Source: a virus. Taken from it: a DNA stretch of 64,000 bases. Of this stretch, positions 1-64,000 are shown piece after piece. Position numbers and translations under genes: made by a program. Under the pieces are notes generated by a model. The model had not been told where the DNA came from, did no database searches, and was given only the letters and a program-made list of their open reading frames with translations. Location of the stretch: positions 1 through 64,000 of the IMG/VR virus record IMGVR_UViG_3300005537_000002. One strand, written 5' to 3'. The stretch's first letter is position 1. Each line of letters starts with the position of its first letter.

Positions 1-395
1 ATAAACTGACGAGAGCTTTAGATGGTATCAACGTAAAAGGGTTGCAGAGTAGCGTGCAAGAAGCTCAACAGACTCTAGCGAGTATACAGTTAGAGGTCGC
101 TGAACTTCAGACTCGCATGGATAGTATTAAGCACACGGGGCTAGGTCGGCCGACTAACTTCACGTCGCGTAATACACATCCAGAATCCGTACAAGTGACA
201 GAAACATCAACGACTAGCACAGCTAGGGTGGTACATATTCCTGGAGTTGGTCAGTGCAAACACTGGTTAGCTGGGGATGTCACACCACGACCTGTGCTAA
301 CGTCTGATCAGATGTCACTTATGCATCCCTACCAGATACTAGCGTATCGCGAAGGTGGAGAAGCTTTCGTGCCTATCATCGAAAGTGAAGTGTAA
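1..395 (+). CDS. 5'-truncated ORF; probable C-terminus of a capsid scaffolding/prohead-protease protein
   Basis: The frame of ORF 42..395 stays open to the window edge (aaa ctg acg aga... from nt 3). Coiled-coil segment (SSVQEAQQTLASIQLEVAELQTRM), located just upstream of the capsid gene. Confidence 0.45.
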   Translation, partial: KLTRALDGINVKGLQSSVQEAQQTLASIQLEVAELQTRMDSIKHTGLGRPTNFTSRNTHPESVQVTETSTTSTARVVHIPGVGQCKHWLAGDVTPRPVLTSDQMSLMHPYQILAYREGGEAFVPIIESEV

Positions 396-397
396 GT

Positions 398-742
398 GTG
401 AGGACGTTCAAATTGGTTCGTCACGAAGACGTGACTGGAATTTCCGGGACGGGTGTTATCGCTGAAGGCACTCAGTACGAGAGTGGGAAGTGCACACTTG
501 CTTGGTTGACTGAGTATAAATCCATTGGGGTGTACGACTCAATGGAGGAGCTGAAAGCGATACACTGTCACGGAGGTAAGACAGACGTGGTATTCGAACC
601 CGTTGTGAGTTGGCATATGGAGACGTCACCGAATCTAACCTTGACTTCCGTCAATGGTATACCCTACAACTATTGGTCATCTACTACGAGTGCTTCTAAC
701 GTGTTGCATAACGTAGTAGACAGCGATACAAACAAGAAGTAG
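398..742 (+). CDS. Conserved phage hypothetical protein
   Basis: N-terminus RTFKLVRHEDVTGISGTGVIAEG resembles a small protein family I recall from actinophages. Abuts the upstream stop. Confidence 0.6.
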   Translation: MRTFKLVRHEDVTGISGTGVIAEGTQYESGKCTLAWLTEYKSIGVYDSMEELKAIHCHGGKTDVVFEPVVSWHMETSPNLTLTSVNGIPYNYWSSTTSASNVLHNVVDSDTNKK

Positions 743-846
743 TGCGCAGCACGCTTAGTGCGAGTCTGCGGCAGCTAACTGCTCAGACGGATACAATATA
801 GCGAGCCACGGCACGAGCATCAAACACATGAAAGGATGCCCGAACA

Positions 847-3657
847 GTGGCAGATACATTTACAGAATTTCAGCATCCGAACGATGCGACTTACCAGATC
901 AAACGTGACAAGATGGTAGGAGAGCTGCTAAAGATGAATCCAGTCCAGCTGGATCGTCAACTGCAGTACATGATGCGTCAGGCACCTCCTAAAGACGACA
1001 GTGGCATGACAAAGGAACTGCTACGCGAAATGCGTAACGCCCCCTTCGCACCAGACGCTGTCAAAGGTATCCTAGACTCAACGTCAGGAACTACAGGCAA
1101 CGTATTAATCCGGCAAGACCTGGAACCTACCCTCTATGCGCTGTTTGTGAAGGTGTTCCCTGCATTTGAGCGGCTCGCTAAGGGACCAGCTAATGGTCTC
1201 GTCCATGCGGCTGGAGCGTAAGCTGTTGGCCCTGCGAAGTAGGATACTGCTTCGTAAGCAAAGAGCGCTGTATCGGTGAAAGCGCAGCAGTGCGTAACGC
1301 CGAGGCAACCTGACCTTTGTCAGAGAGTCCGTAACGAACATACGCGCTCCCCGAAAGGGATGACATGTTCTGAACCCTAGCTATAACTAGTTCGAATGAA
1401 ACTAGGGAGACAAGCAGAAATGACTTGTCCGACGCTTCGGCGTAGGTAACAGACTGAATCAAATTACAACTCCCGACAGTAACTCTCTCGGTTCGACCAT
1501 CATTACTGAGCTTGGTACCGTCAGCTATACCGCCTCGACCTACGTAAGGGCTACGTTCCCGATCGCCGTCTTTGGCGTTGGTAGAGGCGTGAGTTTCAAG
1601 GAGATGGCCGCTGTAGCCCAGGGTGGAGCTCCGTTAGCAGCATAGCGGCTTCAGCAAGTGATTGCTGTCGAATAACTCTCTCTGATATCGGTGGAGGCCT
1701 TCACTTCTCTAGTCTTTAGAAGAAAGGTAATACCGAGGGAAGTCGGCTATGTAGTCGACGCCCGTAACGACTAAGCGAGAGAGCTCTAATGCATATGGTG
1801 TTCACTTGTTTTTATACCTCTTTATATACTATAATTAAAATAGTAGTTAATATAAAGGGGATAAGAACTGTGAGTAATGAGAGACCGTCAAAGGAACAGT
1901 TATATCAGATGTACGTCGTTGAAGGTTTGACACCGATACAAATAGCAAGAAAGTTTGGCTATACAGCATCGGAATCTATACGCTACTGGCTTAATAAGTA
2001 TAGTATCCCCAAACGTACTGTAACGCCGAATAACGCTGTGAGGTCGGTAGCAACTCGAGAGCAACTGTACCAGTGGCACGTAGTTGAAGGGCTTACCGCT
2101 GTAAAGATAGCGTCTGCGCTTGGGTGCAACCAAACAACGATTTCGGGTCTGATAAAAGAGTACGGACTAGATCCCGGACGAGCGCTTGTTAATCGTCCGA
2201 TAGAGTGTCCCGTAACTCGAGATGAGTTGTGGTATATGTATATAGTCGAAGGTATGGGCTTTACTTCTATAGGACAACTACTAGGAGTAGGAGATCAGGC
2301 AGTGGAGCGTTGGGTTAGAGCATTCGGTTTTGAGGTCCACTCTAACGGCAGATACACTCCACAAGTAAAGCGTACTCTAGAGGACTCAACTTATACGACG
2401 TACGGTTTTGACGATACTACGAAACTAGTTATACTATCTCGAGACAGTTGGGTGTGTCAGATGCCTAACTGTGACTGTTCCGAGAAATGGAAGCTTCAAG
2501 TACACCATATCCTACCACTGTACCGAGGAGGTACAAACGACTCTGAGAACGGTATTACTCTCTGCGAAGATTGCCATCGAGCCATTCGCGGAGTGGAAGA
2601 TGAGTGGGTCGAGTACTTTCTGAGTGTAGTGCAAGAGTATTAGATGATGCTATAGTCTGACCTTTACAGAAATGTAAAGAAGTAGGCAGAAATGACCTAC
2701 TCCGACCGAAAGGTCGAGTAACACACGTGATGACCCTCAGAAGACCGAATTAGCTAACGGAATGGTCAAACTGGCTACGGACCTGCAGTACACCATAATG
2801 CAGGGGAATGCGACTAATTCTTCCGGGACTGCGACTCAAGAAGCGGGTCTGTACAATGCGAACGCCTTCGATGGCTTCCGAGGTGTGCTAGGAAGTGTCG
2901 GTTCGTTCTCTGCAAACTCTGCGACACAGGCAGATATTAGCTCGCTGAACATACTCGAGAGTCTCCAGTTCGTTGCAGCGAAGCTAGCTAATGCCGGTGG
3001 TATGCCGAGTGCTGTCTACATGTCGATGAACTCCAAACAAGCTCTCGATACTGAGCAGCAGACCAACCAACGTTATAACAACGACTTCAACGAAATTATA
3101 CCCGGAGTCAAGGTTAACAGCGTACAGTGGGCGAACGGTCAATTAGCCATCATTCCTGTGCCTGGCAACATGATAGGGACGTACAACCGTACGAGCGACA
3201 ACGCTCTAGTCGAGGACATGTACATCTTGGACGAGAGTACCGCAACTTTACGCTGGCTATTCTCTCCAAACTTTACGGTCCTCCAAATTCCGTCGGGAGT
3301 AGACGGAATCCTCAGCGAACGCTACATCGTCTTTGCGATGGACATACACGTCGCCTTCCAGCGTAAGCTGGTCGACTAAACTTCTCTGACATCGGGGAAA
3401 CTCCCAACTGAGATAAGTGGACAATCCCGAGGCAAGCAAGTAGCAAACTACTGTGCAGCCGTAGAGACTGAGTGAGAAGCTCCGAGAGTTCGAACTCTCG
3501 GATGAAGCGACAGTCCGGACTCGCTAGGAATAGCGAGAAGGTAGCAGAAATGACTACCTCACGTAGGTAATGAGTTACCTACGGGGTAACATACCGGTGG
3601 GGCTTAGAATTAGCCGGGCCTATCTTCTGTGGCAAGGTCCGAAGATTGGCTAGCTAG
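847..3657 (+). CDS. Major capsid protein, spliced: join(847..1212,1457..1634,2730..3339,3597..3657), 404 aa
   Basis: Exon lengths 366+178+610+61=1215 nt give 405 codons with no internal stop. Junctions read GLVHAA|NQIT, GGAP-Y-DPQKTEL and YIVFAM-WGLELAGP. RBS (GAAAGGA) precedes the start; the gene lies between the putative scaffold and head-completion genes; HK97-like capsid size; strong terminator follows. Confidence 0.85.
1213..1456 (+). ncRNA. Group I intron 1 (ORF-less, 244 nt) in the capsid gene
   Basis: P7 GAACA(1336-40):TGTTC(1366-70); shared GCAGAAATGAC hairpin; ends TAAC-AGACTG. The exon ends in U, and GGCT pairs with GGCC(1228-31) via a U.G pair. Its 5' splice site is the least certain of the four. 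Confidence 0.8.
1806..1835 (+). promoter_or_regulatory. Sigma70-type promoter inside intron 2 driving the homing endonuclease
   Basis: TTGTTT-N18-TATAAT, same consensus as the other promoters in the window. Confidence 0.7.
1870..2643 (+). CDS. Intron-encoded HNH homing endonuclease with three N-terminal HTH-like repeats
   Basis: C-terminal CQMPNC...LQVHHI...GGTN...NGITLCEDCH HNH motif; three repeats of the form (K/R)(E/D)xL(Y/W)xxxxVEG. GTG at 1870 follows AAGGGG (ORF track start 1789). Confidence 0.9.
   Translation: MSNERPSKEQLYQMYVVEGLTPIQIARKFGYTASESIRYWLNKYSIPKRTVTPNNAVRSVATREQLYQWHVVEGLTAVKIASALGCNQTTISGLIKEYGLDPGRALVNRPIECPVTRDELWYMYIVEGMGFTSIGQLLGVGDQAVERWVRAFGFEVHSNGRYTPQVKRTLEDSTYTTYGFDDTTKLVILSRDSWVCQMPNCDCSEKWKLQVHHILPLYRGGTNDSENGITLCEDCHRAIRGVEDEWVEYFLSVVQEY
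3340..3596 (+). ncRNA. Group I intron 3 (ORF-less, 257 nt) in the capsid gene
   Basis: P1: exon GCGAT with GTCGC(3350-54), U.G at the splice site. P10: GTG with CAC(3347-49). P7 GACTG(3466-70):CAGTC(3511-15). Ends TAAC-ATACCG. Splicing restores ATG-TGG-GGC. Confidence 0.9.
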
Positions 3658-3708
3658 TCGAGGTAAAGGTTCGTGATGTGTGAGAGCTCGCGAATTCAAC
3701 CATGAGTT

Positions 3709-3748
3709 ATACAAGGGGAGCATTCCGGAATGCTCCCCTTGTATTTTT
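3709..3748 (+). terminator. Intrinsic terminator after the capsid gene
   Basis: Perfect 36-bp palindrome ATACAAGGGGAGCATTCC|GGAATGCTCCCCTTGTAT followed by a T run. Confidence 0.8.
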
Positions 3749-3763
3749 GGGCTTTTGAACCTC

Positions 3764-3793
3764 TTGTAAACAGCCAATCGTTTATATTATAAT
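3764..3793 (+). promoter_or_regulatory. Sigma70-type promoter
   Basis: CTC-TTGTAA-N18-TATAAT followed by an AT-rich tract. Confidence 0.75.
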
Positions 3794-3834
3794 ATATTTA
3801 TATAAAGTTGTAATATAAACGAAAGGTTACCTGC

Positions 3835-4587
3835 ATGTTTAACCCAAAGATCGCTGAGGAAGAGATCGTACAGCGTACTATCGAGTTCATTCATGAGTTC
3901 CACGACGCTCACTTACAAGACTACGCGGAATGTTACCGACTTGACACGAGCACCGAACTTGCTCGTTGGTGGTTCGAGAAGCATCTCTTTACTGTTATGG
4001 ACGGGTTTAACTACCACGACCGTTGGATTAATATGGTCGCGTCTGCTTCAACGCCCGATTATGATACAGAGTCTTGGGAGAGAGACTTAAGAGCGAATTG
4101 GCATACACCGTCAAATCAGCCTCTTATGGAAACGAAGTTTGAGCTGGGTTTGTGCGAGCTGAATGATAGATGTCACGTACTAGACAACCGTAAGTGGGCT
4201 AGTGCTACTGAAGCTCAAATCGCGGAGGCGAACGAGTTGGTGGACGTCCACCAACTATCCTATAGTGGGGATATAGCTTTTGAGTTGGAAGTGGAGTTCA
4301 TTAAAGCGTTCGAAGCTCTCGTTCGGCAATTTATTACGAACTATAAAGTTGGTTTTGACAGTCTGACGGCTGAAGAGCGACTTGCCTTACACGAAACTTA
4401 CGAGTATGGTACGTTCGAGGAGTTTACCTGTGGGTTCTGGATTGAGAGCATTGTCAGTAAGCGTCACTATCGGTTTTTGCAAGCGATGCATCAAGGGATA
4501 CAGCGTGCGTACCCAGTCGAGATTGGAGACCGTTGGTTGTACTGGGACGAGAAAGACATCGACCGTGGCGGATGCGGATTCGCCTAG
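3835..4587 (+). CDS. Hypothetical protein
   Basis: 250-aa ORF with RBS (GAAAGG) and its own promoter; no family recognised. Confidence 0.65.
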   Translation: MFNPKIAEEEIVQRTIEFIHEFHDAHLQDYAECYRLDTSTELARWWFEKHLFTVMDGFNYHDRWINMVASASTPDYDTESWERDLRANWHTPSNQPLMETKFELGLCELNDRCHVLDNRKWASATEAQIAEANELVDVHQLSYSGDIAFELEVEFIKAFEALVRQFITNYKVGFDSLTAEERLALHETYEYGTFEEFTCGFWIESIVSKRHYRFLQAMHQGIQRAYPVEIGDRWLYWDEKDIDRGGCGFA

Positions 4588-4605
4588 ACTCTAAAGGGTA
4601 CTAGT

Positions 4606-4665
4606 ACAAGTAGGTCATATACGTATATGACCTACTTGTTTATGCCTCACTTTTTATATTATAAT
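4606..4665 (+). promoter_or_regulatory. 34-bp perfect palindrome overlapping the -35 of a sigma70-type promoter
   Basis: ACAAGTAGGTCATATAC|GTATATGACCTACTTGT (4606-4639); TTGTTT(4636-41)-N18-TATAAT(4660-65). Confidence 0.7.
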
Positions 4666-4682
4666 ATATTATATAAAGTATA

Positions 4683-5540
4683 TTGCGATACGAAAGCGAG
4701 TGTACTATGTTTCTTGACCCCGTAGAGTACGACGAGTGCGGAAGACCGACGTACGAGTGGCTATACGATGCCTATGTCGTGAAGAGGGTTCGTATAGCTG
4801 TCTTATATGAGATACTTGAGTTATCCTCACCATATATGTACGCTTTGATACGAGCGTACAACCTACCGATGCGTATACCTCGTCGAGTTAAGGCACGTCA
4901 ACCGAGTAAAGAAGACGTCGAATATGTGTACACTGACCTAAGTATCCCCTTAGGAGATGCTCTAGCATTACTAGACCTACATTCTCACGTGGAACTGTCC
5001 GCTTGGTGTTATGCGTACGGTATCCCCTACAGATACCGCCACTTACTGACTGATACTGACATAGAAGACATCGTCAACCTCATAGACGATGGAGAGACTA
5101 TGACTGCTATTAGTGCTAGTTACCACACGTCTCCCTCTACGATAAGGGCCGCTCTAGCTACCGTCGGGTATGCTCCTCCTAGTAGACGTTGGTTACGCAA
5201 ACGTCCTACGGCAGAGGCCGAGTTGAGGAACGCAGCCTCTCGACCGGGTGCAACCGTTAGCAGTATCCGCGATGAAGTCGGAGGGTCGATAATAACTGTG
5301 GAGAAGATGCTACAAGAGTTCGGCATACCCTACGCAAAGTGTTATAGAGGTGTGAAAACCGGATGGTTACGCAAAGTAACCACTCCGAGCGAACTACAGG
5401 CAATGCTAGACAGCAAACGTTCACTTACTGACATTGCATCCGCTTATGGTAAGAGTATTTCTACCATAAGTAAGACAGTTAGGCGTTGGGGACTATCAAT
5501 CCCCAAAGATGAGGATATAGTCGATGAGGACTGTGGGTAA
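4683..5540 (+). CDS. Multi-HTH repeat DNA-binding protein (no nuclease domain)
   Basis: Several HTH-like units (PTYEWLYDAYVVKRV; GETMTAISASYHTSPSTIRAAL; KRSLTDIASAYGKSISTISKTV). Likely start ATG 4707. Confidence 0.6.
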   Translation: MRYESECTMFLDPVEYDECGRPTYEWLYDAYVVKRVRIAVLYEILELSSPYMYALIRAYNLPMRIPRRVKARQPSKEDVEYVYTDLSIPLGDALALLDLHSHVELSAWCYAYGIPYRYRHLLTDTDIEDIVNLIDDGETMTAISASYHTSPSTIRAALATVGYAPPSRRWLRKRPTAEAELRNAASRPGATVSSIRDEVGGSIITVEKMLQEFGIPYAKCYRGVKTGWLRKVTTPSELQAMLDSKRSLTDIASAYGKSISTISKTVRRWGLSIPKDEDIVDEDCG

Positions 5541-5547
5541 CCTCCTA

Positions 5548-5606
5548 TTGATTTACGTTACATAATACCTTATAATACTTAGGACAGTGAAGTCTCACTG
5601 TCCTAA
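5548..5606 (+). promoter_or_regulatory. Promoter plus 12-bp leader hairpin of the DUF7873-like/ncRNA unit
   Basis: TTGATT-N17-TATAAT (5548-5576); hairpin TTAGGACAGTGA-AGTC-TCACTGTCCTAA (5579-5606). Confidence 0.7.
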
Positions 5607-5626
5607 AAATATCGTAGGTGGTCAGC

Positions 5627-6355
5627 ATGAGATTGAATCAGGTAATCGCCGTAGAGAAAGGCGTAAAGTCGAGCGCTCTGCAGGAGGTTACAGCCGCATA
5701 CCATATCTTACAGAAACCCCCTCTGTTTACTGGAATCAGCCGTACGTACCGACCTAAAGATGAAGAGGGGGAGACTCTTCCTCCAGAGCACACTAAGGTG
5801 CAGATGAACGTAGATGACATCATTCGGTCTACGTCAGGGACGCTCGTGAAGTTGTTTGACGTTGTAGCGTCAAAGGATTGGGCTAACTGTAGGGCAAGAG
5901 CTGATGTCGTCGTAGACGGTAAGGTACTACTTACTGGAGTACCTGCAACGTACCTGTTGTTTCTCGAGAAACAACTCATCGATCTGCACACGCTTATAGG
6001 CAAGCTACCTGTGCTAGATCCAGCGGAGACTTGGCTCTGGGATGCGACAGTTGACTGTTGGGCGACGGAGCCAGCACAGACTGTACGGACTAAGAAGGTT
6101 CCACGCAACCATGTGAAGGCCGAGGCTACAGAGAAGCACCCAGCACAGGTGGAAGTGTACTACGAGGACGTCTCTGTAGGTACTTGGCGTACAGTAAGGT
6201 TCTCTGGTATGGTGCCGGCTTCTAGAGTAAGGGAACTGTCTGCTAGGGTAGTGAAGTTGCAAGAAGCCGTAAAGGTTGCTCGAGAAGAGGCTAACAACCT
6301 CGAGATCGAGGAACACAAAGTCGGCGACGCTGTTTTGCGATATGTATTCGGATAG
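5627..6355 (+). CDS. Conserved coiled-coil protein (DUF7873-like)
   Basis: MRLNQVIAVEKGVKS...GISRTYRPKDEEGETLPPE...VPATYLLFLEKQL...KVPRNHVKAEATEKHPAQVEVYYED matches, from memory, a well-conserved bacterial/phage family of unknown function. RBS AGGTGG. Confidence 0.7.
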   Translation: MRLNQVIAVEKGVKSSALQEVTAAYHILQKPPLFTGISRTYRPKDEEGETLPPEHTKVQMNVDDIIRSTSGTLVKLFDVVASKDWANCRARADVVVDGKVLLTGVPATYLLFLEKQLIDLHTLIGKLPVLDPAETWLWDATVDCWATEPAQTVRTKKVPRNHVKAEATEKHPAQVEVYYEDVSVGTWRTVRFSGMVPASRVRELSARVVKLQEAVKVAREEANNLEIEEHKVGDAVLRYVFG

Positions 6356-6704
6356 TATCCGGTATATATAATTTGGGGTTCTACACTCAAACTTATACTC
6401 ATGTATAATGAAGAGGTATCAAGTGTGGGTTCAAGTCCCACTCGCGTTTCGTGACGCGATAGCCCAACTTGGTAGAGGCAGTACCTCGACTGGTAAGGCT
6501 TAGGTTATTACCCCTAACTTAAGCATTTTCGTCGAACGCCAAATCGAATGCTAGGAGACTAAACTCACGTATGCAGGTGCAGCTCCTGCTCCGCCGTCCA
6601 ATTCATCGGCGGATAGTTTAAGAGTAGAACGCGCGAGTGTAACGACTGAACTCCCAGCTTAAACGCCGTTGGTGTGCGCAAATGGACGATCAGAACGGGA
6701 CTAG
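6353..6704 (+). ncRNA. Structured ncRNA with two circularly permuted tRNA-like modules (YrlA/Y-RNA-type fold)
   Basis: Module 1 (6413-6487): T-arm GTGGG-TTCAAGT-CCCAC, 7-bp closed acceptor stem TCGCGTT/GACGCGA, TA, D-arm GCC-CAACTTGGTAGA-GGC, closing stem GAGGTAT/GTACCTC. Module 2 (6563-6638): GCAGG-TGCAGCT-CCTGC, TCCGCCG/CGGCGGA, TA, GTTT-AAGAGTA-GAAC, closing stem ACTCACG/CGCGAGT. Confidence 0.8.
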
Positions 6705-6716
6705 GAACTTAGGGTA

Positions 6717-7508
6717 TTGTTCCTAGTCCCACTTTTTATGTATGGGCAACGAACTATGAACACGATTGACGATTTCAACCAACAACCAACCAAGCCTAGT
6801 AAAGCAGTGCGAAAGCGTAATAGGCAGCGTACGCTACGAGACGCTATTGGAGCTGCAGTATCCATATGTATCATTGCTATTAGCATCGGCTTCATGATAG
6901 CGAAGCTTACACCGACTACTTCAGCCGCAACTTCTAGCTCTACCCCTACGGTTGCAGTAGTACATACAGCTCTACCTAACGAACAAGGCAAAACTGCTAG
7001 GGACAAACCAAACACAGTCCCCGGTACAACCCCCACAGCAACTCCGATACCTGTGGTCGCTATCGTAACATCCACACCTGTACCAGTCGCTGCACAGCCG
7101 ATCGTTCCTACCGCAGCTCCCACGCAACGCTCTGTAGTGTACCCAACTCCTACACCACAGCCTATCCCAGTAGTACTACCTACAGCTACACCCACTACTC
7201 CGAAGCCAACACCAGTACCAGTCACGTCTACACCCACGTCTGTAGTAGTCCCTACAGCTACACCTGGCATCACTCCTACAGCTACACCCATGCCTATAGT
7301 ACCCACTGCTACACCTGTACCTACACCTGTACCTACACCTGTACCTACACCTGTACCTACACCTGTACCTACAGTAGTGGTGATACCCACACCTACACCA
7401 GCAGGGGTAAGGATAGGTGCTATATGTAGGGATGGTACTAGGTCCACTGCTACTGGGTCTGGTGCATGTTCACACCATGGTGGTGTACAGAGTTGGATCT
7501 ATGGGTAG
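6717..7508 (+). CDS. Membrane-anchored Pro/Thr-rich protein with C-terminal DUF3761-like domain
   Basis: Basic N-terminus, one TM (IGAAVSICIIAISIGFMIA), long PT-rich linker, C-terminal GAICRDGTRSTATGSGACSHHGGV. Confidence 0.7.
   Translation: MFLVPLFMYGQRTMNTIDDFNQQPTKPSKAVRKRNRQRTLRDAIGAAVSICIIAISIGFMIAKLTPTTSAATSSSTPTVAVVHTALPNEQGKTARDKPNTVPGTTPTATPIPVVAIVTSTPVPVAAQPIVPTAAPTQRSVVYPTPTPQPIPVVLPTATPTTPKPTPVPVTSTPTSVVVPTATPGITPTATPMPIVPTATPVPTPVPTPVPTPVPTPVPTVVVIPTPTPAGVRIGAICRDGTRSTATGSGACSHHGGVQSWIYG
7311..7370 (+). repeat. Coding tandem repeat, 5 x ACACCTGTACCT (TPVP)
   Basis: Read directly from the sequence. Confidence 0.9.
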
Positions 7509-52659: not shown

Positions 52660-52866
52660 ATGAAAACACTATACGACGAGAACCACAGGTACACACCAGA
52701 CGCAACTGGTCTTAGCGCGAACGTAGGTAGAGCCCTTCACAGTATATTCAAGGACTACATAGAGTTGGGCTACTCCCCGATAGAAATATCCCATATTATG
52801 CATAGCGTCGTGTTCGACCTCGAGATGGAGTCGATACTTGACGCAGACGAGGATTCTAATGCCTAA
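52660..52866 (+). CDS. Hypothetical protein
   Basis: RBS GGAGG; overlaps the polA start. Confidence 0.55.
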   Translation: MKTLYDENHRYTPDATGLSANVGRALHSIFKDYIELGYSPIEISHIMHSVVFDLEMESILDADEDSNA

Positions 52867-55876: not shown

Positions 55877-56953
55877 ATGTTAGACACACGTATTAAGGAA
55901 ATGGTGGTTGCTTATAGCAACTTAATCGAGTCGTACGGAGGCCCAACCGAATTTGCAAAGCAGGGTGCGTACAGTACGCCGTATTGGGGGACTCAGCAGA
56001 TTACGAGCTATCCACAAGTTGTAACCCAACTTGTGGAGATAGCTCCACAGTACGTAGACTTGACTGCTGGTGGTGGTAGGTATCCGGTGCATCGAGCACA
56101 GCAAGGTCAGCGAGTCGCTTGTAACGACCGCTGTGTATATGCTGCAGTGTCGTTGGACGCAGTGCTGTGTAGTAAAACGACGCATACACTCGGATTCGAA
56201 GAGTGGCTAGAGGCATTCGCTCAAGCTACACATCCGATCTACGTAGCTTCTCGAAAGGGTTGGCTGCATAGACGTGCAGCGAAAGGTGATGTACTAGAAG
56301 GTTTCGAGGCAACAGCCTCGTACATCGACGGGTTGGTGAGTCAATTCGAGCGAGACTCGTTAGTGCTGGCTGCTGTAGGTGCAACTTTAGTTGAGGACTG
56401 TTCGCACAACGGGCTGAGTTGGTTGCAAGATGTCAGTTCCGTAACGACGGACGTGTTTTGGCGTAGTTTTGTACGTGAAGCTGTACGTATACGCTGTACT
56501 ATTGACAGTATGCCTATGCACGGGTATGTGCATCAGGTTACGAATATGGACGCACTCGAGTCACTCGACAACCTACATATCGAAGGAGGAGCTGTCTGCT
56601 ATATCGATCCGGCTTGGCCTTGGATGAGTACAGACGGAGCTAACCCGTATACGTTCTTCAGCACTCAAATATCAGCTGTGCTAGCGCAAAGTGATCTGCA
56701 AGTACCGTTCTGGAGTAGACATGAACCCGAAGCTGTGTACGCGGAGATTGGGACCTGGATCAACCGAGCGTTCGAGAAGGGTGCGGCCTACTTTATCGTA
56801 AGCACACAGGGTACGAACTCGCCTCCGCCAAACGATCTGTACGATTGGTTGGGTACAGAGTTTGATCTTACACACGTAGAGAACGTGGTGGCGAAGAGTT
56901 CCCGCACCGGTAAAGAATTCGTAGAGTGGTATGGTATAGTGAAAGCGTCGTAG
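55877..56953 (+). CDS. SAM-dependent DNA amino-methyltransferase-like protein
   Basis: Motif-I-like YVDLTAGGG...ACND; motif-IV-like YIDPAW. Confidence 0.55.
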   Translation: MLDTRIKEMVVAYSNLIESYGGPTEFAKQGAYSTPYWGTQQITSYPQVVTQLVEIAPQYVDLTAGGGRYPVHRAQQGQRVACNDRCVYAAVSLDAVLCSKTTHTLGFEEWLEAFAQATHPIYVASRKGWLHRRAAKGDVLEGFEATASYIDGLVSQFERDSLVLAAVGATLVEDCSHNGLSWLQDVSSVTTDVFWRSFVREAVRIRCTIDSMPMHGYVHQVTNMDALESLDNLHIEGGAVCYIDPAWPWMSTDGANPYTFFSTQISAVLAQSDLQVPFWSRHEPEAVYAEIGTWINRAFEKGAAYFIVSTQGTNSPPPNDLYDWLGTEFDLTHVENVVAKSSRTGKEFVEWYGIVKAS

Positions 56954-57181: not shown

Positions 57182-58246
57182 GTGCCTGTTCGTACTATTT
57201 CTGCTTCACAACTGCAAGAGTTCTCTACTTGCAGACGACGCTGGGGCTATAGTGCCCTAGAACATTTGGATAGCCGGAGACAGTCGTATGCTTTATGGTT
57301 CGGCATCGGGGTACACCACGCACTAGATCGATTTTATTCCTTAGGCTTCGACCCTTCTGTAAGCTTTGATACGTGGTGGTCTACTGAGACTACCAAGCAA
57401 CAGGCAGGTCAACGTTCGCTGTTGGGTGAACGGGATATTGAACAGAAGTGGCTTGAGTTACGTCAGTTAGGTATAGGCATGCTATCACACTATCGGGAAT
57501 GGGCTCGTCTGCAGGACGACTTCGAGGTACTAGCAACAGAGGCGGACTTTCGGGTACCCATTCCCGAAACCGAAGGTCACTTAGTTGGCAGGTTCGACGG
57601 CATTATACGACTATGGCGCAGACCAAACGACGTGTATTTACTCGAACACAAGAGCTACAGTATCAAACCCCCACAATACTTCCTGCTACTCGACGAACAG
57701 ACTAACGTGTATCAGTGGGCAGCTACAAAACTACTTGCAAGTGGAGATTTAGCACAGTACGGTGTACCTGAAACCGCCACTGTTAAGGGTGTGTTGTATA
57801 ACGGGTTGAGGAAAGCCGTTCCAACTACTCCCCCGCTTGCTGACGACGGTAAGAGTTTACTAAGGGACGCGCGTATTGCTACAACGTATGAGTTGTATTT
57901 AGCTTCTATACGGGAGCACGACTTTTCGCCGAGTGACTATGCTGATGTGCTAGTGAAGTTGAAACTACGTGGTAACCGCTATTTCTATCGAGAGTGGATA
58001 CAAAGGTCAGCAGAGGAGCTGACTAGACTAGAGCGGAGACTGACCTCGCAATTTAGGGCCATGTCTAACCCGGAAGTTGCCCTACTTCCGTCGCCTACGT
58101 GGGATTGCTACTGGCGGTGTCCGTACTTCTCGTTGTGTGTCGCTGAAAACACTGGGAAGGATTATGACGAGATCAAAAGGACGCAGTACGCTCCTAGGGT
58201 ATGGTCTAGAGAGAAAACACCGTCAACGACTGACGATTTCCTGTAG
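57182..58246 (+). CDS. PD-(D/E)XK exonuclease (RecB/Cas4-like), copy 1
   Basis: ISASQLQEFSTCRRRW, FGIGVHHAL, GRFDG, LLEHK, QTNVY, CYWRCPYFSLC. Confidence 0.85.
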   Translation: MPVRTISASQLQEFSTCRRRWGYSALEHLDSRRQSYALWFGIGVHHALDRFYSLGFDPSVSFDTWWSTETTKQQAGQRSLLGERDIEQKWLELRQLGIGMLSHYREWARLQDDFEVLATEADFRVPIPETEGHLVGRFDGIIRLWRRPNDVYLLEHKSYSIKPPQYFLLLDEQTNVYQWAATKLLASGDLAQYGVPETATVKGVLYNGLRKAVPTTPPLADDGKSLLRDARIATTYELYLASIREHDFSPSDYADVLVKLKLRGNRYFYREWIQRSAEELTRLERRLTSQFRAMSNPEVALLPSPTWDCYWRCPYFSLCVAENTGKDYDEIKRTQYAPRVWSREKTPSTTDDFL

Positions 58247-58275
58247 GCGCTGCCTTGGTGTTAGACTCCGCCCTC

Positions 58276-58304
58276 TTGATTTTGTTTATGTAATCCTTTA
58301 TAAT
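58276..58304 (+). promoter_or_regulatory. Sigma70-type promoter
   Basis: CTC-TTGATT-N17-TATAAT. Confidence 0.7.
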
Positions 58305-58325
58305 ATAAATAAGAAGATTTAATAA

Positions 58326-59492
58326 ATGAGGAGGCAACAAGTGACCCAAGACAACAAACGCAACCCGTTTAGAGTCGTTGCCCTACCCGTAAGACGCATA
58401 AGTGCCACTGGTATAAGCGAATTTAAGGAATGTAGGAGGAGATGGTACTACTCTAACGAGTCCCAGTTGAATTTGGAGCCTAAACGTGGGACAGTTGCGT
58501 ACGACTTTGGGAGAAAGATTCATCATGCGTTAGAGCGACACTATCGGGATGGTGTGCATGCATCCGATGCGTTTGTAGAAGTATTTGATAGTGATGTAAC
58601 TCGTATGGTAGAAGTGGGGATGATGGGAGATGACTATAGCAAGTACGAAGCTATGCGTGAATTGGGTGTGCAAATGCTGACGTATTACGAGAACTGGGCT
58701 AGCACTCACGACGACTTCAAGATGCTGCACACCGAGTTTGAATTTGAAATCCCGCTAGTCGACTATGACGGAACAGACTTAGGGGTCTATTTTGTGGGGC
58801 GTATTGACGGTATCGTCCGTACTAATGACGGCCTGTATTATTTAATCGAGTACAAGACGGCTGGTACACATTTGGCCAGTGACGTCATGCTACTAGATGA
58901 GCAGACAGCTAGATACCAGTTAGCGGCTCAGTGGTTGATACGCAATGGTAAAGTACCGGGTATACCTAGTGATGCTATACTAAGTGGGGTTATTTACACG
59001 GCACTGCTTAAAAAGATAGTTAAACCCCCACTACTACTCAAAAACGGAAAAGGGTTGAGTAAGGATATAGTCACCAACCCAACTACGTACGAGCTGTATC
59101 TGAAAGCGATACAGGACAATGGCTTTAACGAAAGCGACTATGCAGCTGTGCTAGATAAGCTGCAGAACACGTACCCAACTGGTACGATATTTGTGCGTAG
59201 AGAGTATGTGTTGAGGAGTAAGGACGAGATGCAGGGTCATGCACACAGGCTAATGTTGGAAGTGAGGGAGATGTCGAGAGAGAACCTACCTATTTATCCT
59301 AGTCCCAAATGGGACGGCTCTTGCGCGTGGAGTTGTCCGTATCATGCGCTGTGTGTGACGGAAAATATAACTGGAAATCTCGGGGGTGAGGTAGACTTCC
59401 GCATACGTAACGAGTTTGTGCAGCGTCCACCAAGGGGAGGAGTCTACCAACAGCCACGAGAAGGAGGATACGACGGCCAAGAGTTAGGCTAG
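58326..59492 (+). CDS. PD-(D/E)XK exonuclease (RecB/Cas4-like), copy 2
   Basis: ISATGISEFKECRRRW, FGRKIHHAL, GRIDG, LIEYK, QTARY, CAWSCPYHALC. Confidence 0.85.
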   Translation: MRRQQVTQDNKRNPFRVVALPVRRISATGISEFKECRRRWYYSNESQLNLEPKRGTVAYDFGRKIHHALERHYRDGVHASDAFVEVFDSDVTRMVEVGMMGDDYSKYEAMRELGVQMLTYYENWASTHDDFKMLHTEFEFEIPLVDYDGTDLGVYFVGRIDGIVRTNDGLYYLIEYKTAGTHLASDVMLLDEQTARYQLAAQWLIRNGKVPGIPSDAILSGVIYTALLKKIVKPPLLLKNGKGLSKDIVTNPTTYELYLKAIQDNGFNESDYAAVLDKLQNTYPTGTIFVRREYVLRSKDEMQGHAHRLMLEVREMSRENLPIYPSPKWDGSCAWSCPYHALCVTENITGNLGGEVDFRIRNEFVQRPPRGGVYQQPREGGYDGQELG

Positions 59493-59554: not shown

Positions 59555-60391
59555 ATGGCAGTAACACAGGGGGTACAACCGACGCTCACGATACCCCCAC
59601 TACGAATTGAGAGTCCCCAACAAGCGGCGGAGTACATCAAAGTATTGGTGTACGGTATACAAGGTATGGGTAAGACCTACTTTGTAGGGACTGCCGAAGA
59701 CGTTCCGTCGATGAGGAACGTCTTCATCGCCGACTACGACAAGGGTATGATGACCCTAGCTGCTTTAGGGCGAGGTTCGCACCTAAAGACAGTTCAACTA
59801 GAGGCGTTCAGCGGTTACTGGAAGGGAACAGAGTATATTCCGGGTATAACGGACATATACAAGTTCCTAACAGAACAGCCTCACGAGTATAAGACTATCG
59901 TCATTGACGGGGTTCGAGCGATGCAGGAGCTATGTCACGAACAAGTCATGAAAGAGGCGGCAGCTCGAGAAAGGCGTGACCCTGAAGTACCCCAGCAACA
60001 AGACTACGGTCGAGTTGCTTCTCGTATGAAGTTGGTTCTGCAACGATTTGTTAGTCTGCCGATGAACGTTATCATGACGTGTCAGGAGCAGTCGATGCAG
60101 AACCAGTTGACGATGAAGATGTCAACTCGTCCTCACCTACAGGAGTCGCTTGCTCTATTGATTCCAGGTCTATTCGATGTAGTGCTACATCTAGACGTAG
60201 CTGTAAAGATGGTAGATGGTAAGTCGATAACGACTAGACTTGCTCAGTGCCAGCCAGATGGACAGTACGTAGCTAAGGATAGGTCCGGAAGGTTGGGGTC
60301 TGTTATTGAGGACCCTACAATGGGATACATTCACGATCGGGTTACAGCCGCGTTAGCGGTAAAACCCACTACTACCACCAAAGTTAAGTAA
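59555..60391 (+). CDS. Sak4-like AAA-family recombination ATPase
   Basis: VYGIQGMGKT, TIVIDG, QQQDYG, GLFDVVLHL, AKDRSG. Confidence 0.85.
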   Translation: MAVTQGVQPTLTIPPLRIESPQQAAEYIKVLVYGIQGMGKTYFVGTAEDVPSMRNVFIADYDKGMMTLAALGRGSHLKTVQLEAFSGYWKGTEYIPGITDIYKFLTEQPHEYKTIVIDGVRAMQELCHEQVMKEAAARERRDPEVPQQQDYGRVASRMKLVLQRFVSLPMNVIMTCQEQSMQNQLTMKMSTRPHLQESLALLIPGLFDVVLHLDVAVKMVDGKSITTRLAQCQPDGQYVAKDRSGRLGSVIEDPTMGYIHDRVTAALAVKPTTTTKVK

Positions 60392-60409: not shown

Positions 60410-60901
60410 ATGGCAACATTAGATTTCAGTCAAGTCGAGGAGAGAGAAGGTTTTAATACTCTTCCTACGGGAGCTTATACGGTAGCTCTTGCTAAGGTGG
60501 AACAGAAAATGTCTAACTCTAGCGGTAAGCCAATGTATTCAGTGGAGTTCGTCATTCAAGGACCGATTTATGCACAGCGCCGGTTGTGGGATAATTTCAG
60601 TCTCCAACTGAACTCGATGTGGAAACTGCAAGCATTTCTGCAAGCACTTCACCCGGAGGAAGAGATTGGGAAGACCTACGACTGGGTCGAGAATGGGGAT
60701 CAAGGCCGACAGGTCGTAGCTTTGGTTAAGCACGAGGTCTATAACGGTAAGTTGTCTGAACGTATCGAAGCGTATTGGCCCGCTAACGAGAAAGGTCAGG
60801 AAGTGTTAGCACGTAACGTTCCTGATCCGAAGAGCGTTCCGAGCATGCCAGAGAACGGAGCACAAGCTCCGGTAGGGGCTAGCTCACTGTTTAGTATGTA
60901 G
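60410..60901 (+). CDS. DUF669-type single-stranded DNA-binding protein
   Basis: LPTGAYTV...SGKPMYSVEF...RRLWDNF; C-terminal aromatic tail; follows Sak4. Confidence 0.75.
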   Translation: MATLDFSQVEEREGFNTLPTGAYTVALAKVEQKMSNSSGKPMYSVEFVIQGPIYAQRRLWDNFSLQLNSMWKLQAFLQALHPEEEIGKTYDWVENGDQGRQVVALVKHEVYNGKLSERIEAYWPANEKGQEVLARNVPDPKSVPSMPENGAQAPVGASSLFSM

Positions 60902-60994: not shown

Positions 60995-61405
60995 ATGGAA
61001 CAGGCATTAATTCGAAAGGCCTTCAAGTTTGAGTCTGCACATCAATTACCACATCATAGAGGTCAGTGTGCTAGACTCCATGGACATTCTTACCGGTTAG
61101 AGGTTTTTGTGTACGGTCCGATACAAGAAGTAGTCGAAGACGCACCTGACAGTAGTGAGGGCATGGTAATGGACTTTGGTGATATAAGTGCGGTAGTAAA
61201 GGAACACATTATTACTAGACTCGACCACTACAATCTGAATGACGTGGTTCCCGTTCCAGTAACGACTGCAGAGTTAGTCGCTTGCTGGATTCGAGATACA
61301 TTGCTCCCCTACGTGCCAAATTTGTTTGCCATACGTCTTTGGGAGACCGAAGACGGCTACGCTGAAGTGTACGTAGGCGGAGCAAACTTCAAGTTGTTGC
61401 CGTAG
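60995..61405 (+). CDS. queD: 6-carboxy-5,6,7,8-tetrahydropterin synthase
   Basis: FESAHQL...CARLHGHSY...MDFG...LDH..LN...TAE...LWETE. Confidence 0.92.
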   Translation: MEQALIRKAFKFESAHQLPHHRGQCARLHGHSYRLEVFVYGPIQEVVEDAPDSSEGMVMDFGDISAVVKEHIITRLDHYNLNDVVPVPVTTAELVACWIRDTLLPYVPNLFAIRLWETEDGYAEVYVGGANFKLLP

Positions 61406-61454
61406 TGCGTAACGTATAGAGAAAGGCGCCTAACATGTTGAAGGAGGAAAACCT

Positions 61455-62234
61455 TTGAGTATTGACACTCAGACAGTCTCCGAAGTTGAACCAAACGTCG
61501 TTGAACGGAAGTTTACTGTCAGTGAGATTTATGGAGACGTAGTTCAGGGGGAAGGAACTATGACTTACGTACGCACCCATTTCTTACGGATGGGTGGCTG
61601 CGACTACCAACATTGCAGTTGGTGTGATAGTTTGTACGCAGTTCTCCCAGAAGAGGTACGTAAGTTGGAACGGTTATCCGCAAAGGAGATCGTTACAAGA
61701 ATACTTAGTCTACCTAGAGCTCCATACGTTACCATTAGTGGGGGTAATCCGGTAATGCACAAACTAGATGACGTAGTTGATGCATTGCACGCTGCAAATT
61801 ATTGTGTGGCAGTCGAGACTCAGGGAACGCTTTGGAAAGACTGGGTAGGACAGTGCGAGTGTATCACTTGCTCTCCTAAACCACCTAGCTCAGGTATGAC
61901 GACCAATTGGTCGTTACTGGACAATTTCATCGCCAAGTCAAGACTTGCCAACACACAACTGTGCTTAAAGGTAGTCGTCTTCACTGATGATGACTACGAG
62001 TACGCACGGACGGTGTACCATAGATACAGATGCGATGATGGGAGTACACCATTCTACCTACAAACTGGTACGATACTGCCAACTACAGAGAATCCGAATG
62101 GGGATACAGTTTATACTCTAACCCAACGATATAGAGAGTTGACCGAACGAGTACTAGCGGACGGTGACATGCAGTATGCTAGACCTAGTTGTCAACAGCA
62201 TGTACTGATGTACGGCCACAAGAGAGGAATCTGA
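61455..62234 (+). CDS. queE: 7-carboxy-7-deazaguanine synthase (radical SAM)
   Basis: QGEG, RMGGCDYQHCSWCDS, ISGGNP, ETQG, CSPKPPSSG, QQHVLMYG. Confidence 0.92.
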   Translation: MSIDTQTVSEVEPNVVERKFTVSEIYGDVVQGEGTMTYVRTHFLRMGGCDYQHCSWCDSLYAVLPEEVRKLERLSAKEIVTRILSLPRAPYVTISGGNPVMHKLDDVVDALHAANYCVAVETQGTLWKDWVGQCECITCSPKPPSSGMTTNWSLLDNFIAKSRLANTQLCLKVVVFTDDDYEYARTVYHRYRCDDGSTPFYLQTGTILPTTENPNGDTVYTLTQRYRELTERVLADGDMQYARPSCQQHVLMYGHKRGI

Positions 62235-62236
62235 CA

Positions 62237-63028
62237 TTGACAACGCAGCGTATGCCGTTCAACTTAAGTGCGGAACTTGTTGCCGGTCTTCGTAAGCAAT
62301 CCGTACGAGCTTGTCTGCAGTGTGGCGTAACGGAAGCCCAGTCGTTGGAGTTAACGGGTAGAGGTTTGCAGACACATAGGGTTAAGAGTGGGGAAGTGAC
62401 AGAGGACATTGTAATGTGCCACGACTGTCACTTCCGCCAGCATAATGACCCGGAAGTGGACCGAGCACGATATCAAACTGTGCTAGCTTCTACTCGTAAT
62501 TGGCTGGAATCCTTAGGGGTAGACCTAACACACGGCGACTTCAGAGAAACTGCTAGGAGAGTGGCTACATACTACTTAGGACACTTTAAGTCTCCGGATT
62601 CTGTTGAGTACGAGTTAGAACAACTACGACAGGCGAAGTTCTCGACAGGATATAGTGGTATGGTAGCTGTATCCGGCATTCAAGCGGACGGTCTCTGTCC
62701 TCACCATCTGCTACCTGTACGATATACTATTAAAGTAGGGTATCTCCCCTACGAAGGTAGAGCAATCGGCCTGTCTAAGCTGCCGAGGGTAGTTGAGTTA
62801 TGTGCCAGCATACCTCGATTACAAGAAGATATCACGATGTGGATAGCGGAAGAGGTTTCGCTAGCTGCAGAAACTCCTCACGTAGCTGTGCAAATTGTGG
62901 GGAAGCACAGTTGTATGGAGATTAGGGGCGTCCGTCAACGTAAGTCGGATACTACAACTACAGTGCTTCTAGGTCACTTCCTAGAAGAAACTAATTCTCA
63001 CCGCGAATTCCTAGCGCTCACCGACTAG
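62237..63028 (+). CDS. folE: GTP cyclohydrolase I with an N-terminal Zn-finger/HNH-like extension
   Basis: ETARRVA, LCPHHLLP, IGLSKLPR, RLQE, GKHSCMEIRGV; TTG start after AGAGGA (ORF track start 62189). Confidence 0.9.
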   Translation: MTTQRMPFNLSAELVAGLRKQSVRACLQCGVTEAQSLELTGRGLQTHRVKSGEVTEDIVMCHDCHFRQHNDPEVDRARYQTVLASTRNWLESLGVDLTHGDFRETARRVATYYLGHFKSPDSVEYELEQLRQAKFSTGYSGMVAVSGIQADGLCPHHLLPVRYTIKVGYLPYEGRAIGLSKLPRVVELCASIPRLQEDITMWIAEEVSLAAETPHVAVQIVGKHSCMEIRGVRQRKSDTTTTVLLGHFLEETNSHREFLALTD

Positions 63029-63032
63029 GGAT

Positions 63033-63530
63033 GTGGTAGTGCAAGAAGAAAGGTACACTTTTGTGAATCAACCTAGACCAGCGGGTACGTTTACGTACAC
63101 AGACCACGAGTTTAATGAAGAGTTCCTGCATTTCATGCAGGAGTGTATGGAAACGTATCGAGAACGAGCTCAAGAGTACAATAACGCAGCGGCTAGTACG
63201 TCGATGTTAGAGTACTTTGAGCCGGATGTGGTGATCCCAAACCACTTTGCAGCGTGCTACATGTACGTTAAACATAAGTTCAGTCGGTTCGCAAACTGCC
63301 TGAAGAACTACATCGCAAAGGTAGAACTCGTTGCTGACACTCGAGTTAGTTACGAACGAGCGGAAGATAGCATACGAGACTTAGTCAACTACGCCGCATT
63401 TGAGGCAGTCATTCTACGACTGCACTACAAGTGGGTACAGTCCCAACTACGTACGCCTCAAGCTATCTATGATCAAGCTCCAGAGATTGACGTAGATCAA
63501 CAAGTTCCCGTTGTGAACGGACACCACTAA
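63033..63530 (+). CDS. Nucleotide-modification-associated (DUF1599/MazG-like) protein
   Basis: RAQEYN...KHKFSRF...EDSIRDLVNYA pattern within the deazaguanine cluster. Confidence 0.6.
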   Translation: MVVQEERYTFVNQPRPAGTFTYTDHEFNEEFLHFMQECMETYRERAQEYNNAAASTSMLEYFEPDVVIPNHFAACYMYVKHKFSRFANCLKNYIAKVELVADTRVSYERAEDSIRDLVNYAAFEAVILRLHYKWVQSQLRTPQAIYDQAPEIDVDQQVPVVNGHH

Positions 63531-63547
63531 ACGAAAGGTGCAGGCTG

Positions 63548-64000
63548 ATGCAAGCGTCAATCATCAGTCCTGTATCTTTACTAGATGCAGTTTCATTACG
63601 ACAGAAACTGCATCTAGTCTTAGTACAGGAGCTGGAGAGAAGCAAGGCGTATGCAGACTTCTATACGAACGTTATACGGCCTAGAGGTGACTACCTTATT
63701 CTAGATAATGGCGCGTTCGAGCTAGGAGAAGCTGCTAGTGCTGAACTACTCCTCAAATGGGTACGATTGCTGCATCCGGATGAAATTGTGTTACCGGATG
63801 TACGCGAGGATTCCTTTGCTACGCTTAGTCGCACAACCGACTTCATACAGCACGTCTTACCGTTGATAGACTACCCGATTAAGTGTATGGCAGTGCCTCA
63901 AGGGAAAAACTTGCAAGAGTGGATGATGTGCTTGCATATTATGCTGTCTATACCCCAGATTACGTGTATCGGACCTTATGAGGAAAGTGCCGACTGGTTC
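63548..64000 (+). CDS. TGT/DpdA-like deazaguanine-DNA transglycosylase, 3'-truncated (not in ORF track)
   Basis: My translation: MQASIISP...YLILDNGAFELG...PDEIVLPDV...MAVPQG...; open to the window end; follows queD-queE-folE. Confidence 0.7.
   Translation, partial: MQASIISPVSLLDAVSLRQKLHLVLVQELERSKAYADFYTNVIRPRGDYLILDNGAFELGEAASAELLLKWVRLLHPDEIVLPDVREDSFATLSRTTDFIQHVLPLIDYPIKCMAVPQGKNLQEWMMCLHIMLSIPQITCIGPYEESADWF

Follow-up and report, generated by a model that had tools for sequence, protein, structure and literature searches.

Genome-wide signal words, such as Chi, the uptake sequences and the FtsK orienting polar sequences (KOPS), have to our knowledge so far been properties of cellular chromosomes. 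Chi is read by RecBCD or AddAB and acts independently of transcription. Short sites are also read by archaeo-eukaryotic primases (AEP type); the recognition site of pRN1 ORF904 is 5´-GTG-3´. The prim-pol of phage NrS-1 recognizes an 8-nt site, 5´-TTTGGTTA-3´, whose minimal form 5´-GTG(A/G)-3´ is bound by the helix bundle, and begins its primer on the first base that lies upstream of this site (PMC8718748). Here we analyze the octamer CTGTGCTA in a 64,000-nucleotide stretch of viral DNA (the window). Its source is the IMG/VR record of a soil phage (IMGVR_UViG_3300005537_000002) that is 177,637 bp long and carries a terminal repeat of 110 bp; the window covers the first 64 kb. CTGTGCTA, which reads CT-GTG-CTA, contains the GTG core of the helix-bundle sites. 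It is a genuine selected DNA-level signal rather than a codon-pair habit and is private to the phage lineage, and its most likely mechanism, which we put forward tentatively, is that it marks the start sites of the phage primase-helicase.

When the window was searched for CTGTGCTA, 49 exact copies were found, whereas a dinucleotide-preserving shuffle of the window yields 3.3 ± 1.9 copies and at most 11. The 30 plus-strand copies lie at 292–299, 6009–6016, 8537–8544, 9813–9820, 10672–10679, 13461–13468, 20223–20230, 25575–25582, 29524–29531, 33491–33498, 34643–34650, 35027–35034, 38492–38499, 40860–40867, 41283–41290, 43286–43293, 46038–46045, 46513–46520, 47182–47189, 47280–47287, 47958–47965, 49773–49780, 50331–50338, 50574–50581, 53355–53362, 54093–54100, 55811–55818, 56676–56683, 59146–59153 and 62478–62485. 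The 19 minus-strand copies lie at 215–222, 7837–7844, 12931–12938, 14530–14537, 16232–16239, 17610–17617, 26754–26761, 28607–28614, 36934–36941, 39274–39281, 41040–41047, 41986–41993, 45325–45332, 47172–47179, 49186–49193, 53478–53485, 53538–53545, 54624–54631 and 57750–57757. The first-pass annotation of the window had listed 46 of these by eye, all with correct coordinates, and overlooked the three copies at 36934 (minus), 46513 (plus) and 50574 (plus). The complete genome contains 125 copies (66 plus, 59 minus), a density of 0.70/kb or one per 1.4 kb, whereas the reversed word used as a control occurs only 2 and 6 times.

The enrichment was evaluated against nulls that respect coding. Genes were called crudely, as the longest non-overlapping open reading frames (ORFs), which gave 287 genes, 88% coding sequence and 250 genes on the plus strand. 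In a synonymous-codon shuffle done gene by gene, every protein and the codon usage of each gene are preserved. The genome has 114 genic copies of CTGTGCTA, compared with 10.1 ± 2.9 under this shuffle (300 shuffles, maximum 22) and 5.7 ± 2.4 under permutation of whole codons. When all 8-mers are ranked against the synonymous-shuffle null, CTGTGCTA is first among the sense words (63 observed, 4.2 expected, z 28.7) and its reverse complement is first among the antisense words (51 observed, 5.2 expected, z 20.2). The next approximately twenty 8-mers are nearly all overlapping derivatives of CTGTGCTA, and the top unrelated word reaches a z of only 6.2. The enrichment thus survives the amino-acid-preserving shuffle and unrelated 8-mers fall far short of it, so that neither of the two outcomes named in the first-pass annotation as fatal to a real signal, loss of the enrichment under such a null or equal enrichment of many other 8-mers, was observed; its view that a single codon-pair habit is an unlikely explanation holds.

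The copies occur in several reading frames, as had been noted by eye. The 125 genome copies comprise 52 in the frame xCT-GTG-CTA, 32 in xTA-GCA-CAG, 19 in xxT-AGC-ACA-G, 10 in xxC-TGT-GCT-A and 1 in CTG-TGC-TAx, with 11 intergenic. Wherever a compatible peptide occurs, CTGTGCTA is used at 19–60% of the sites against 1–6% expected: it encodes 52 of 140 [T/A/P/S]-V-L tripeptides (37%; 2.5 expected), 32 of 53 [L/I/V]-A-Q tripeptides (60%; 3.3 expected), 10 of 23 x-C-A-x sites (43%) and 19 of 102 x-S-T-x sites (19%). The tripeptides that are compatible with CTGTGCTA are themselves 1.3–1.5 times more frequent than amino-acid composition predicts. Taken together, the site usage and the tripeptide excess indicate a pressure on the DNA that is strong enough to bend protein sequence; CTGTGCTA overrides codon choice and slightly bends the proteins. 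An artefact of codon pairs or peptides is ruled out by the shuffle nulls and this peptide-site analysis. The genome as a whole (48% GC) has an unusual codon usage that favors GTA, CTA, TAC, ACT and AGT, which places GTAGTA, GTACTA, CTACTA and ACGTAC among the commonest hexamers of the window.

The word has a strict core and soft flanks. Positions 2–7 (TGTGCT) are strict, and only a G to A change at position 5 is tolerated, weakly (2-fold enriched). C is preferred at position 1, where A or G is approximately 3-fold enriched, and A is preferred at position 8, followed by T (4.6-fold). Outside the octamer, T is nearly excluded at −1 (8/125), G is under-represented at −2, as is C at +1, and C is preferred at −3 (59/125) and A at −6 (64/125). 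These preferences do not differ between the frame classes, and the 11 intergenic copies share them. This indicates that the recognized site is longer than 8 bases and asymmetric, with its extra information on the 5´ side; it can be written approximately as A-n-n-C-M-V-CTGTGCTA-D. No dominant extension past the 8-mer was found, in agreement with the earlier remark that flanking bases vary. A dispersed repeat or mobile element behind CTGTGCTA is ruled out, since no longer word dominates and the flanks are variable.

Along the genome, 114 of the 125 copies (91%) are genic and scattered through gene bodies without favoring the ends of genes, and the sense to antisense ratio is 63:51 although approximately 87% of the genes share one strand. 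The combined spacing is slightly more even than random (coefficient of variation (CV) 0.84 versus 0.98 ± 0.085, P 0.03), and no gap exceeds 5.7 kb. On single strands, the CVs are 0.81 and 0.86 (P 0.02–0.17) and the mean spacings 2.7 and 3.0 kb; evenness per strand and alternation of strands are weak, non-significant tendencies, and the per-strand and combined tests do not separate a single-strand from a duplex reading. A walk of the orientation along the genome behaves like a random one (range 14, permutation P 0.65), and no relation between orientation and GC skew was found when compared by segment. A polar translocase guide of the type of KOPS or the SpoIIIE recognition sequences (SRS) is ruled out by this walk and by the lack of any polarity switch, and an operator or stoperator array is ruled out by the genic location and the sense to antisense ratio. 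Close inverted pairs number only two in the genome. One is an 18-bp perfect palindrome, TAGCACAG-CT-CTGTGCTA, at window 47172–47189 within the SNF2 helicase gene, whose first and second arms are the copies at 47172 and 47182. The other is a 22-bp inverted repeat, CTGTGCTA-TATTAT-TAGCACAG, at genome 132328–132349, which is intergenic and surrounds a promoter-like AT core. The copy at 45325–45332 is also intergenic and lies within a gap at 45.2–45.8 kb where the GC skew changes sign. Among the longest intervals free of CTGTGCTA is 62478–66997 (4.5 kb), which spans the 7-deazaguanine gene cluster described below, and the Gat-QueC gene of that cluster is the sole gene longer than 1.5 kb that lacks the word.

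Only one other word family is strongly iterated in this genome, the AT-rich TTATAATATA(AA), with 46 copies of the 10-mer. Its copies include those at window 3787, 4659, 8670, 39419, 45796 and 58298, with 40 others over the genome. It is intergenic in 41 of 46 cases, mostly 20–100 nt upstream of plus-strand genes, has a conserved upstream C..C.TTG box and is evidently the main sigma-70-type promoter of the phage. CTGTGCTA runs along gene bodies, unlike TTATAATATA, and a role as a promoter or terminator word is ruled out.

The closest relative examined is one phage carried on two IMG/VR contigs, L289 (IMGVR_UViG_3300005436_000274) and L290, whose TerL is 66–70% and whose portal is 81% identical over the best-matching segments. 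Its contigs contain 4 copies of CTGTGCTA in 22 kb, against 0.7–1.0 expected (P 0.005–0.02); the word is much denser in the phage studied here. Two of the four copies occupy the exact positions of the copies at 6009 and 173236 (genome coordinate), with 8/8 bases kept while the flanking 90 nt are 67–70% identical. The copy at 6009–6016, whose counterpart is in L289, encodes P-V-L as CCT GTG CTA. Over 920 aligned codons, where the two phages share a degenerate amino acid they use the same codon in just 39% of cases, and the chance that all three codons are kept at both sites is approximately 0.004. The retention of two sites despite near-saturated synonymous divergence indicates that CTGTGCTA is a trait of the lineage under purifying selection. 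At genome 170424, this phage has GTA-GCA-CAG where the relative has GTC-GCT-CAA, both of which encode V-A-Q, and CTGTGCTA has been made or lost there through three synonymous changes. Nearer kin exist, as a 181,885-bp contig encodes a GT2 glycosyltransferase with 68% identity (P0006). No close cultured relative of the phage was found. L289 also bears a dense tRNA gene cluster with 11 copies each of the T-arm-like 8-mers GGTTCGAA and GATTCGAA; ARAGORN found no tRNA genes in the window.

Phages that share just Pol I, the helicase domain of the primase or GT2 lack CTGTGCTA, as do contigs with GT2. Several words in other phages were considered as analogues and set aside. In a 106-kb phage whose TerL is 48% identical (G418, or L292; IMGVR_UViG_3300021560_000014), the GTG-centred word CGTGAGCC forms local arrays with 18- or 36-nt spacing at 2780–7059 and 76913–77391 (30 copies on one strand), which is a tandem-repeat feature. 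The word CTGTGTC of a second phage (G001) is ruled out, as it is strand-biased (4:16) and Pol I is the sole shared gene. An IMG/VR scan with two motifs yielded, among the matches listed, three candidates (G006–G008) that have strand-specific local clusters instead of a word spread over the genome. One of these, an unrelated 126-kb phage (G008; IMGVR_UViG_3300028805_000072), carries 12 copies of CTGTGCTA on one strand within 17 kb (13794–30471), including three adjacent doublets one base apart, which looks like an operator-type array rather than a genome-wide word. Two further words, TGTGGGCA and CCCACAG (reverse complement CTGTGGG), share the (C)TGTG core and were not counted as support.

The named cellular homologues of the phage GT2 glycosyltransferase are in Ktedonobacteria (56–61% identity), but bacteria of the candidate phyla radiation (CPR) hold homologues at similar identity, so GT2 alone does not fix the host. 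We infer Ktedonobacteria as the likely, not proven, host class. The protein encoded at 171752–172645, used as a second host probe, has no homologue in anything searched. In five Ktedonobacteria genomes, CTGTGCTA occurs 157–340 times per 8.9–13.7 Mb, which is equal to the reversed control, and it is likewise at background in one metagenome-assembled genome each of Ktedonobacteraceae and Chloroflexia and in a Saccharibacteria genome. The densest of 401 sampled Chloroflexota genomes reaches approximately 0.05/kb, which is also the maximum over the 407 Chloroflexota genomes counted in total, versus 0.70/kb in the phage; six of the 401 are flagged as unpublished (G191, G290, G362, G056, G163 and G245), and the aggregate holds without them. 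The first-pass annotation had proposed, as one possibility, a Chi-like signal for host RecBCD/AddAB and suggested a test of candidate hosts. The count found no enrichment in any genome, and the proposal is not borne out: a host Chi, an uptake sequence or another host-wide word is ruled out for Chloroflexota, in which the host is placed by inference. GT2 belongs to a region with a GH18 glycosidase and two GT2 genes at genome 68922–74167 (L017:4922-10167). The PgaC-like GT2 (70648–71994), which is the one with the Ktedonobacteria homologues, is 61–70% identical to proteins on phage-sized contigs (for example 46, 124, 182 and 327 kb) and looks like a host-derived polysaccharide gene that circulates among large soil phages.

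CTGTGCTA must be read by a phage-encoded protein that the phage cannot do without. The candidate that we favor tentatively, on which the first-pass annotation was silent, is the primase-helicase, a 777-aa protein encoded on the minus strand at 42287–44620. Its D5_N and DUF5906/SF3 helicase part is firmly assigned. As a lead, the N-terminal approximately 400 aa may comprise an AEP-type primase domain followed by a PriCT helix bundle. The protein matches PHROG families annotated as DNA primase, and residues 51–306 match primase N-terminal profiles. A tblastn search with the N-terminal domain returned "DNA primase/polymerase" proteins of actinophages (E 4e-10 to 6e-4) and of an Oceanotoga phage, and its atlas look-alikes are RepB_primase/BT4734-like AEP domains that are joined to PriCT-1/2 (scores 0.93–0.95, TM 0.5–0.67), while a Pfam search of this domain gave no match. 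The closest homologue found for the protein is 40% identical (P0123) and is encoded on a 10,584-bp contig.

Selection on the DNA itself keeps the word dense, at one copy per 1.4 kb overall and one per 2.7–3.0 kb on each strand. In primases of this class, the helix bundle binds a word centred on GTG in the single-stranded template, and priming begins just 5´ of it. If the primase-helicase reads CTGTGCTA in this way, the copies would represent hard-wired priming sites on both strands at the spacing of Okazaki fragments, which may serve recombination-dependent or multi-directional replication. The per-strand means of 2.7 and 3.0 kb are in line with the Okazaki scale. Two adjacent PD-(D/E)XK exonuclease genes of the Cas4/RecB type (plus strand, 57182–59492) are followed downstream by genes for a Sak4-like annealase (59555–60391) and a DUF669 protein that resembles single-stranded DNA-binding protein (SSB; 60410–60901), a module that fits recombination-dependent replication. 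In addition, the phage encodes SNF2 and DinG-type helicases and two family-A DNA polymerases, a three-domain Pol I (window 52838–55648) and a PolA fused to an N-terminal uracil-DNA-glycosylase (UDG) domain (genome 78982–82032). If primase recognition is correct, the genome itself would fix where DNA synthesis begins, and the specificity of an AEP prim-pol would become directly testable, with a genomic signature from which it may be predicted.

Several observations weigh against primase recognition. A strand bias with the inferred fork direction, as judged from GC skew or the one-way gene orientation, is absent (approximately 50:47 in the positive-skew arm). Orientations change along the genome as in a random walk, and the regularity of spacing is weak (CV 0.81–0.86). 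Among four cultured phages whose prim-pol N-terminal domains are 25–39% identical, no clean analogue of CTGTGCTA was found. A strict need for 6–8 nt would be unusually stringent for a primase, and the AEP/PriCT assignment is a lead drawn from language-model and predicted-structure look-alikes together with weak sequence matches. Finally, independence of orientation fits a reader that binds duplex DNA equally well.

Two readings of the latter type come next, both of which had been offered in the first-pass annotation and which we regard as rather unlikely. In the first, CTGTGCTA is the duplex target of a DNA-modifying enzyme of the phage and serves as an epigenetic self-tag spread along the genome. 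The orientation independence and the strict core with soft flanks suit recognition of the duplex, and the phage has the enzymes: a complete preQ0/G+ pathway that includes a DpdA-like gene, a second protein with the tRNA-guanine transglycosylase (TGT) fold, and three D12-methyltransferase-like paralogues. The pathway is encoded by a 7-deazaguanine cluster (window 60995–64000 and genome 64001–66048) that comprises QueD, QueE, FolE, a 165-aa ORF, the DpdA-like protein and a Gat-QueC fusion, of which QueD, QueE, FolE and Gat-QueC are assigned by Pfam. The DpdA-like DNA guanine transglycosylase (267 aa, plus strand, 63548–64000 and on to genome 64351) matches a protein annotated as DpdA in Flavobacterium phage immuto (E 2e-6). 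From the gene content of this cluster, dG+ or a related base is expected in the phage DNA. The stand-alone TGT-fold enzyme (387 aa, plus strand, 7512–8675) sits 55 kb from the cluster and has an extra N-terminal domain; it belongs to a metagenome family of 214 members that conserves DSGAF and STDSS and has no Pfam model. Its fold was verified with an AlphaFold model (pLDDT 91.5), for which the top 50 listed Foldseek matches in the PDB are all tRNA-guanine transglycosylases (E 2e-8). The Pfam TGT model has no match in the genome, and neither PDB sequence and profile searches with the TGT-like and cluster proteins nor NCBIfam gave a match. The Dam-like protein at 55877–56953 (plus strand) is the first of the three paralogues, the others lying at genome 66941–68089 and 76143–77207. 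They are 23–30% mutually identical, carry D-P-x-W instead of DPPY as motif IV, and have no match in Pfam, PHROG or NCBIfam.

In one variant of the self-tag, a Dam-like protein would methylate an adenine in CTGTGCTA/TAGCACAG; in the other, the stand-alone TGT-fold enzyme would exchange the G of TGT. TGT is the trinucleotide read by tRNA-guanine transglycosylases, and CTGTGCTA contains one TGT, whose G would become a 7-deazaguanine in the second variant. That each of the approximately 125 copies bears a rare modified base, placed by the TGT-fold enzyme at 7512–8675 or by a Dam-like paralogue, is improbable. The enzymes bDpdA and DpdA2 modify less than 0.1% of Gs (PMC10516641), a low rate that we consider compatible with long, rare targets. 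However, known targets are short and not over-represented, the published DpdA motifs being GA and GGC (phages CAjan and iggy; PMC7544227, PMC10484667). Phages immuto (160 kb) and MA9V-3 (103 kb), which have homologous DpdA proteins, lack a private word; their top 8-mers reach z 8–10, versus z 33 here. The nearest annotated relative of the cluster DpdA, that of immuto, belongs to the DpdA3 subfamily, which replaces all guanines (PMC10516641). The substrate of the second TGT-fold enzyme could be RNA, and nothing ties the encoded modification enzymes to CTGTGCTA. We know of no selective reason for a 12-fold enrichment of a modification target. If the self-tag were real, phage DNA would be marked every approximately 1.4 kb and could be told from host DNA by phage nucleases or translocases, which would be new in two respects, as a DNA base-exchange enzyme that is site-specific with a long motif and as a genome evolved to multiply its own modification sites; neither would have a precedent.

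In the second duplex reading, which has about the same modest standing, the copies are binding sites of a phage DNA-binding protein with an architectural, nucleoid-organizing or global regulatory role, which would bind as a monomer to an asymmetric duplex site of approximately 14 bp. The strict core with flank preferences that do not depend on frame is what such a site predicts, and the even coverage without orientation polarity, the restriction to the phage and the conservation of sites agree with it. However, no candidate protein was found, close inverted pairs are limited to two, and the 91% genic location, unrelated to promoters or gene ends, is unlike that of stoperators or operators.

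A Chi-like attenuator, which a helicase-nuclease would read on single-stranded DNA and which would shield the ends of phage DNA in both directions, is clearly less probable. Its reader would be either the phage's own, a DinG-type or SNF2 helicase acting with the PD-(D/E)XK exonucleases, or an enzyme of a host that was not sampled. A circularly permuted genome would require the equal strand numbers and the even coverage seen here, and the two RecB-family nuclease genes lie close to two helicases. Phages can enrich the Chi of their host (PMC3784561), but CTGTGCTA is at background in every candidate host genome counted. The twin exonucleases to which the first-pass annotation had linked the word are present, but they are small, ordinary enzymes of the Cas4/RecB type in a Sak4-SSB module, and the scan of the phage proteins showed no SF1 motor of the RecB/AddA type. 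A Chi owned by the phage is possible, but it would work without the machinery that defines Chi systems, and we know of no such phage-owned system. The weakest reading, a neutral by-product of sequence-biased mutation or repair of the very-short-patch (VSP) type with no function that depends on a reader, is highly improbable, and a purely mutational or repair footprint is unlikely: several DNA glycosylase-type enzymes are encoded (the UDG-PolA fusion, a pyrimidine-dimer glycosylase and the TGT-fold proteins), but internal single-mismatch neighbours of CTGTGCTA are not depleted (88 observed versus approximately 103 expected), end variants are enriched 2.5–4.6-fold, the approximately 100 extra copies exceed the supply of any single neighbour, amino-acid usage is bent toward compatible peptides, and orthologous sites are kept across saturated synonymous divergence.

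Whichever protein is the reader, a virus here maintains a word of its own at a higher density than Escherichia coli keeps Chi, and its likely hosts ignore that word. The cost to the phage is a distorted codon use and even a distorted protein sequence, and the implication is that an essential phage process reads CTGTGCTA about every 1.4 kb. Should the reader be a modification enzyme or a DNA-binding protein in place of the primase, the word would be a new kind of viral self-mark. CTGTGCTA in addition offers a simple entry point, open to assay, to the biology of an uncultured phage lineage whose host phylum is under-studied, and it cautions that phage-private signals can dominate host prediction based on k-mers.

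Literature searches returned no account of a comparable word that is private to a phage and spread over its genome, and CTGTGCTA shares only some of its features with each known system. Like the DNA uptake sequences (DUS) of Neisseria, the uptake signal sequences (USS) of Pasteurellaceae and the cyanobacterial HIP1, it is iterated throughout the genome and overrides codon choice; those words, however, are a property of cellular genomes and occur secondarily in phages, and HIP1 is palindromic, while CTGTGCTA belongs to the phage only. Chi, including GCTGGTGG of E. coli and its species-specific equivalents, is likewise a non-palindromic word (5- to 8-mer) that is over-represented and genic in several frames, but it is enriched in the host and co-oriented with replication, in contrast to CTGTGCTA, which is at background in the candidate hosts and has no polarity. 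The DpdA systems resemble this phage in that the pathway is present, here with two enzymes of the TGT superfamily and a word that contains TGT, but their motifs are 2–3 nt long and not enriched. The stoperators of cluster A mycobacteriophages are, like CTGTGCTA, phage-private and asymmetric and exist in tens of copies, and they are read by a phage protein; they are 13–14 bp long, mostly intergenic and oriented with transcription, whereas CTGTGCTA is 91% genic, free of orientation and approximately four times more numerous. The NrS-1 and pRN1 sites were defined biochemically, whereas CTGTGCTA is known from a strong genomic signature; no report of genome-wide over-representation or of synonymous-site selection was found for those sites in the literature, and CTGTGCTA shows no strand bias with the inferred fork direction. 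Both are nevertheless asymmetric words of up to 8 nt that are centred on GTG, and the extra information of CTGTGCTA lies 5´, on the side where NrS-1 starts its primer. The reader of the NrS-1 and pRN1 sites consists of an AEP domain, a helix bundle and an SF3 helicase, and this phage appears to encode the same layout.

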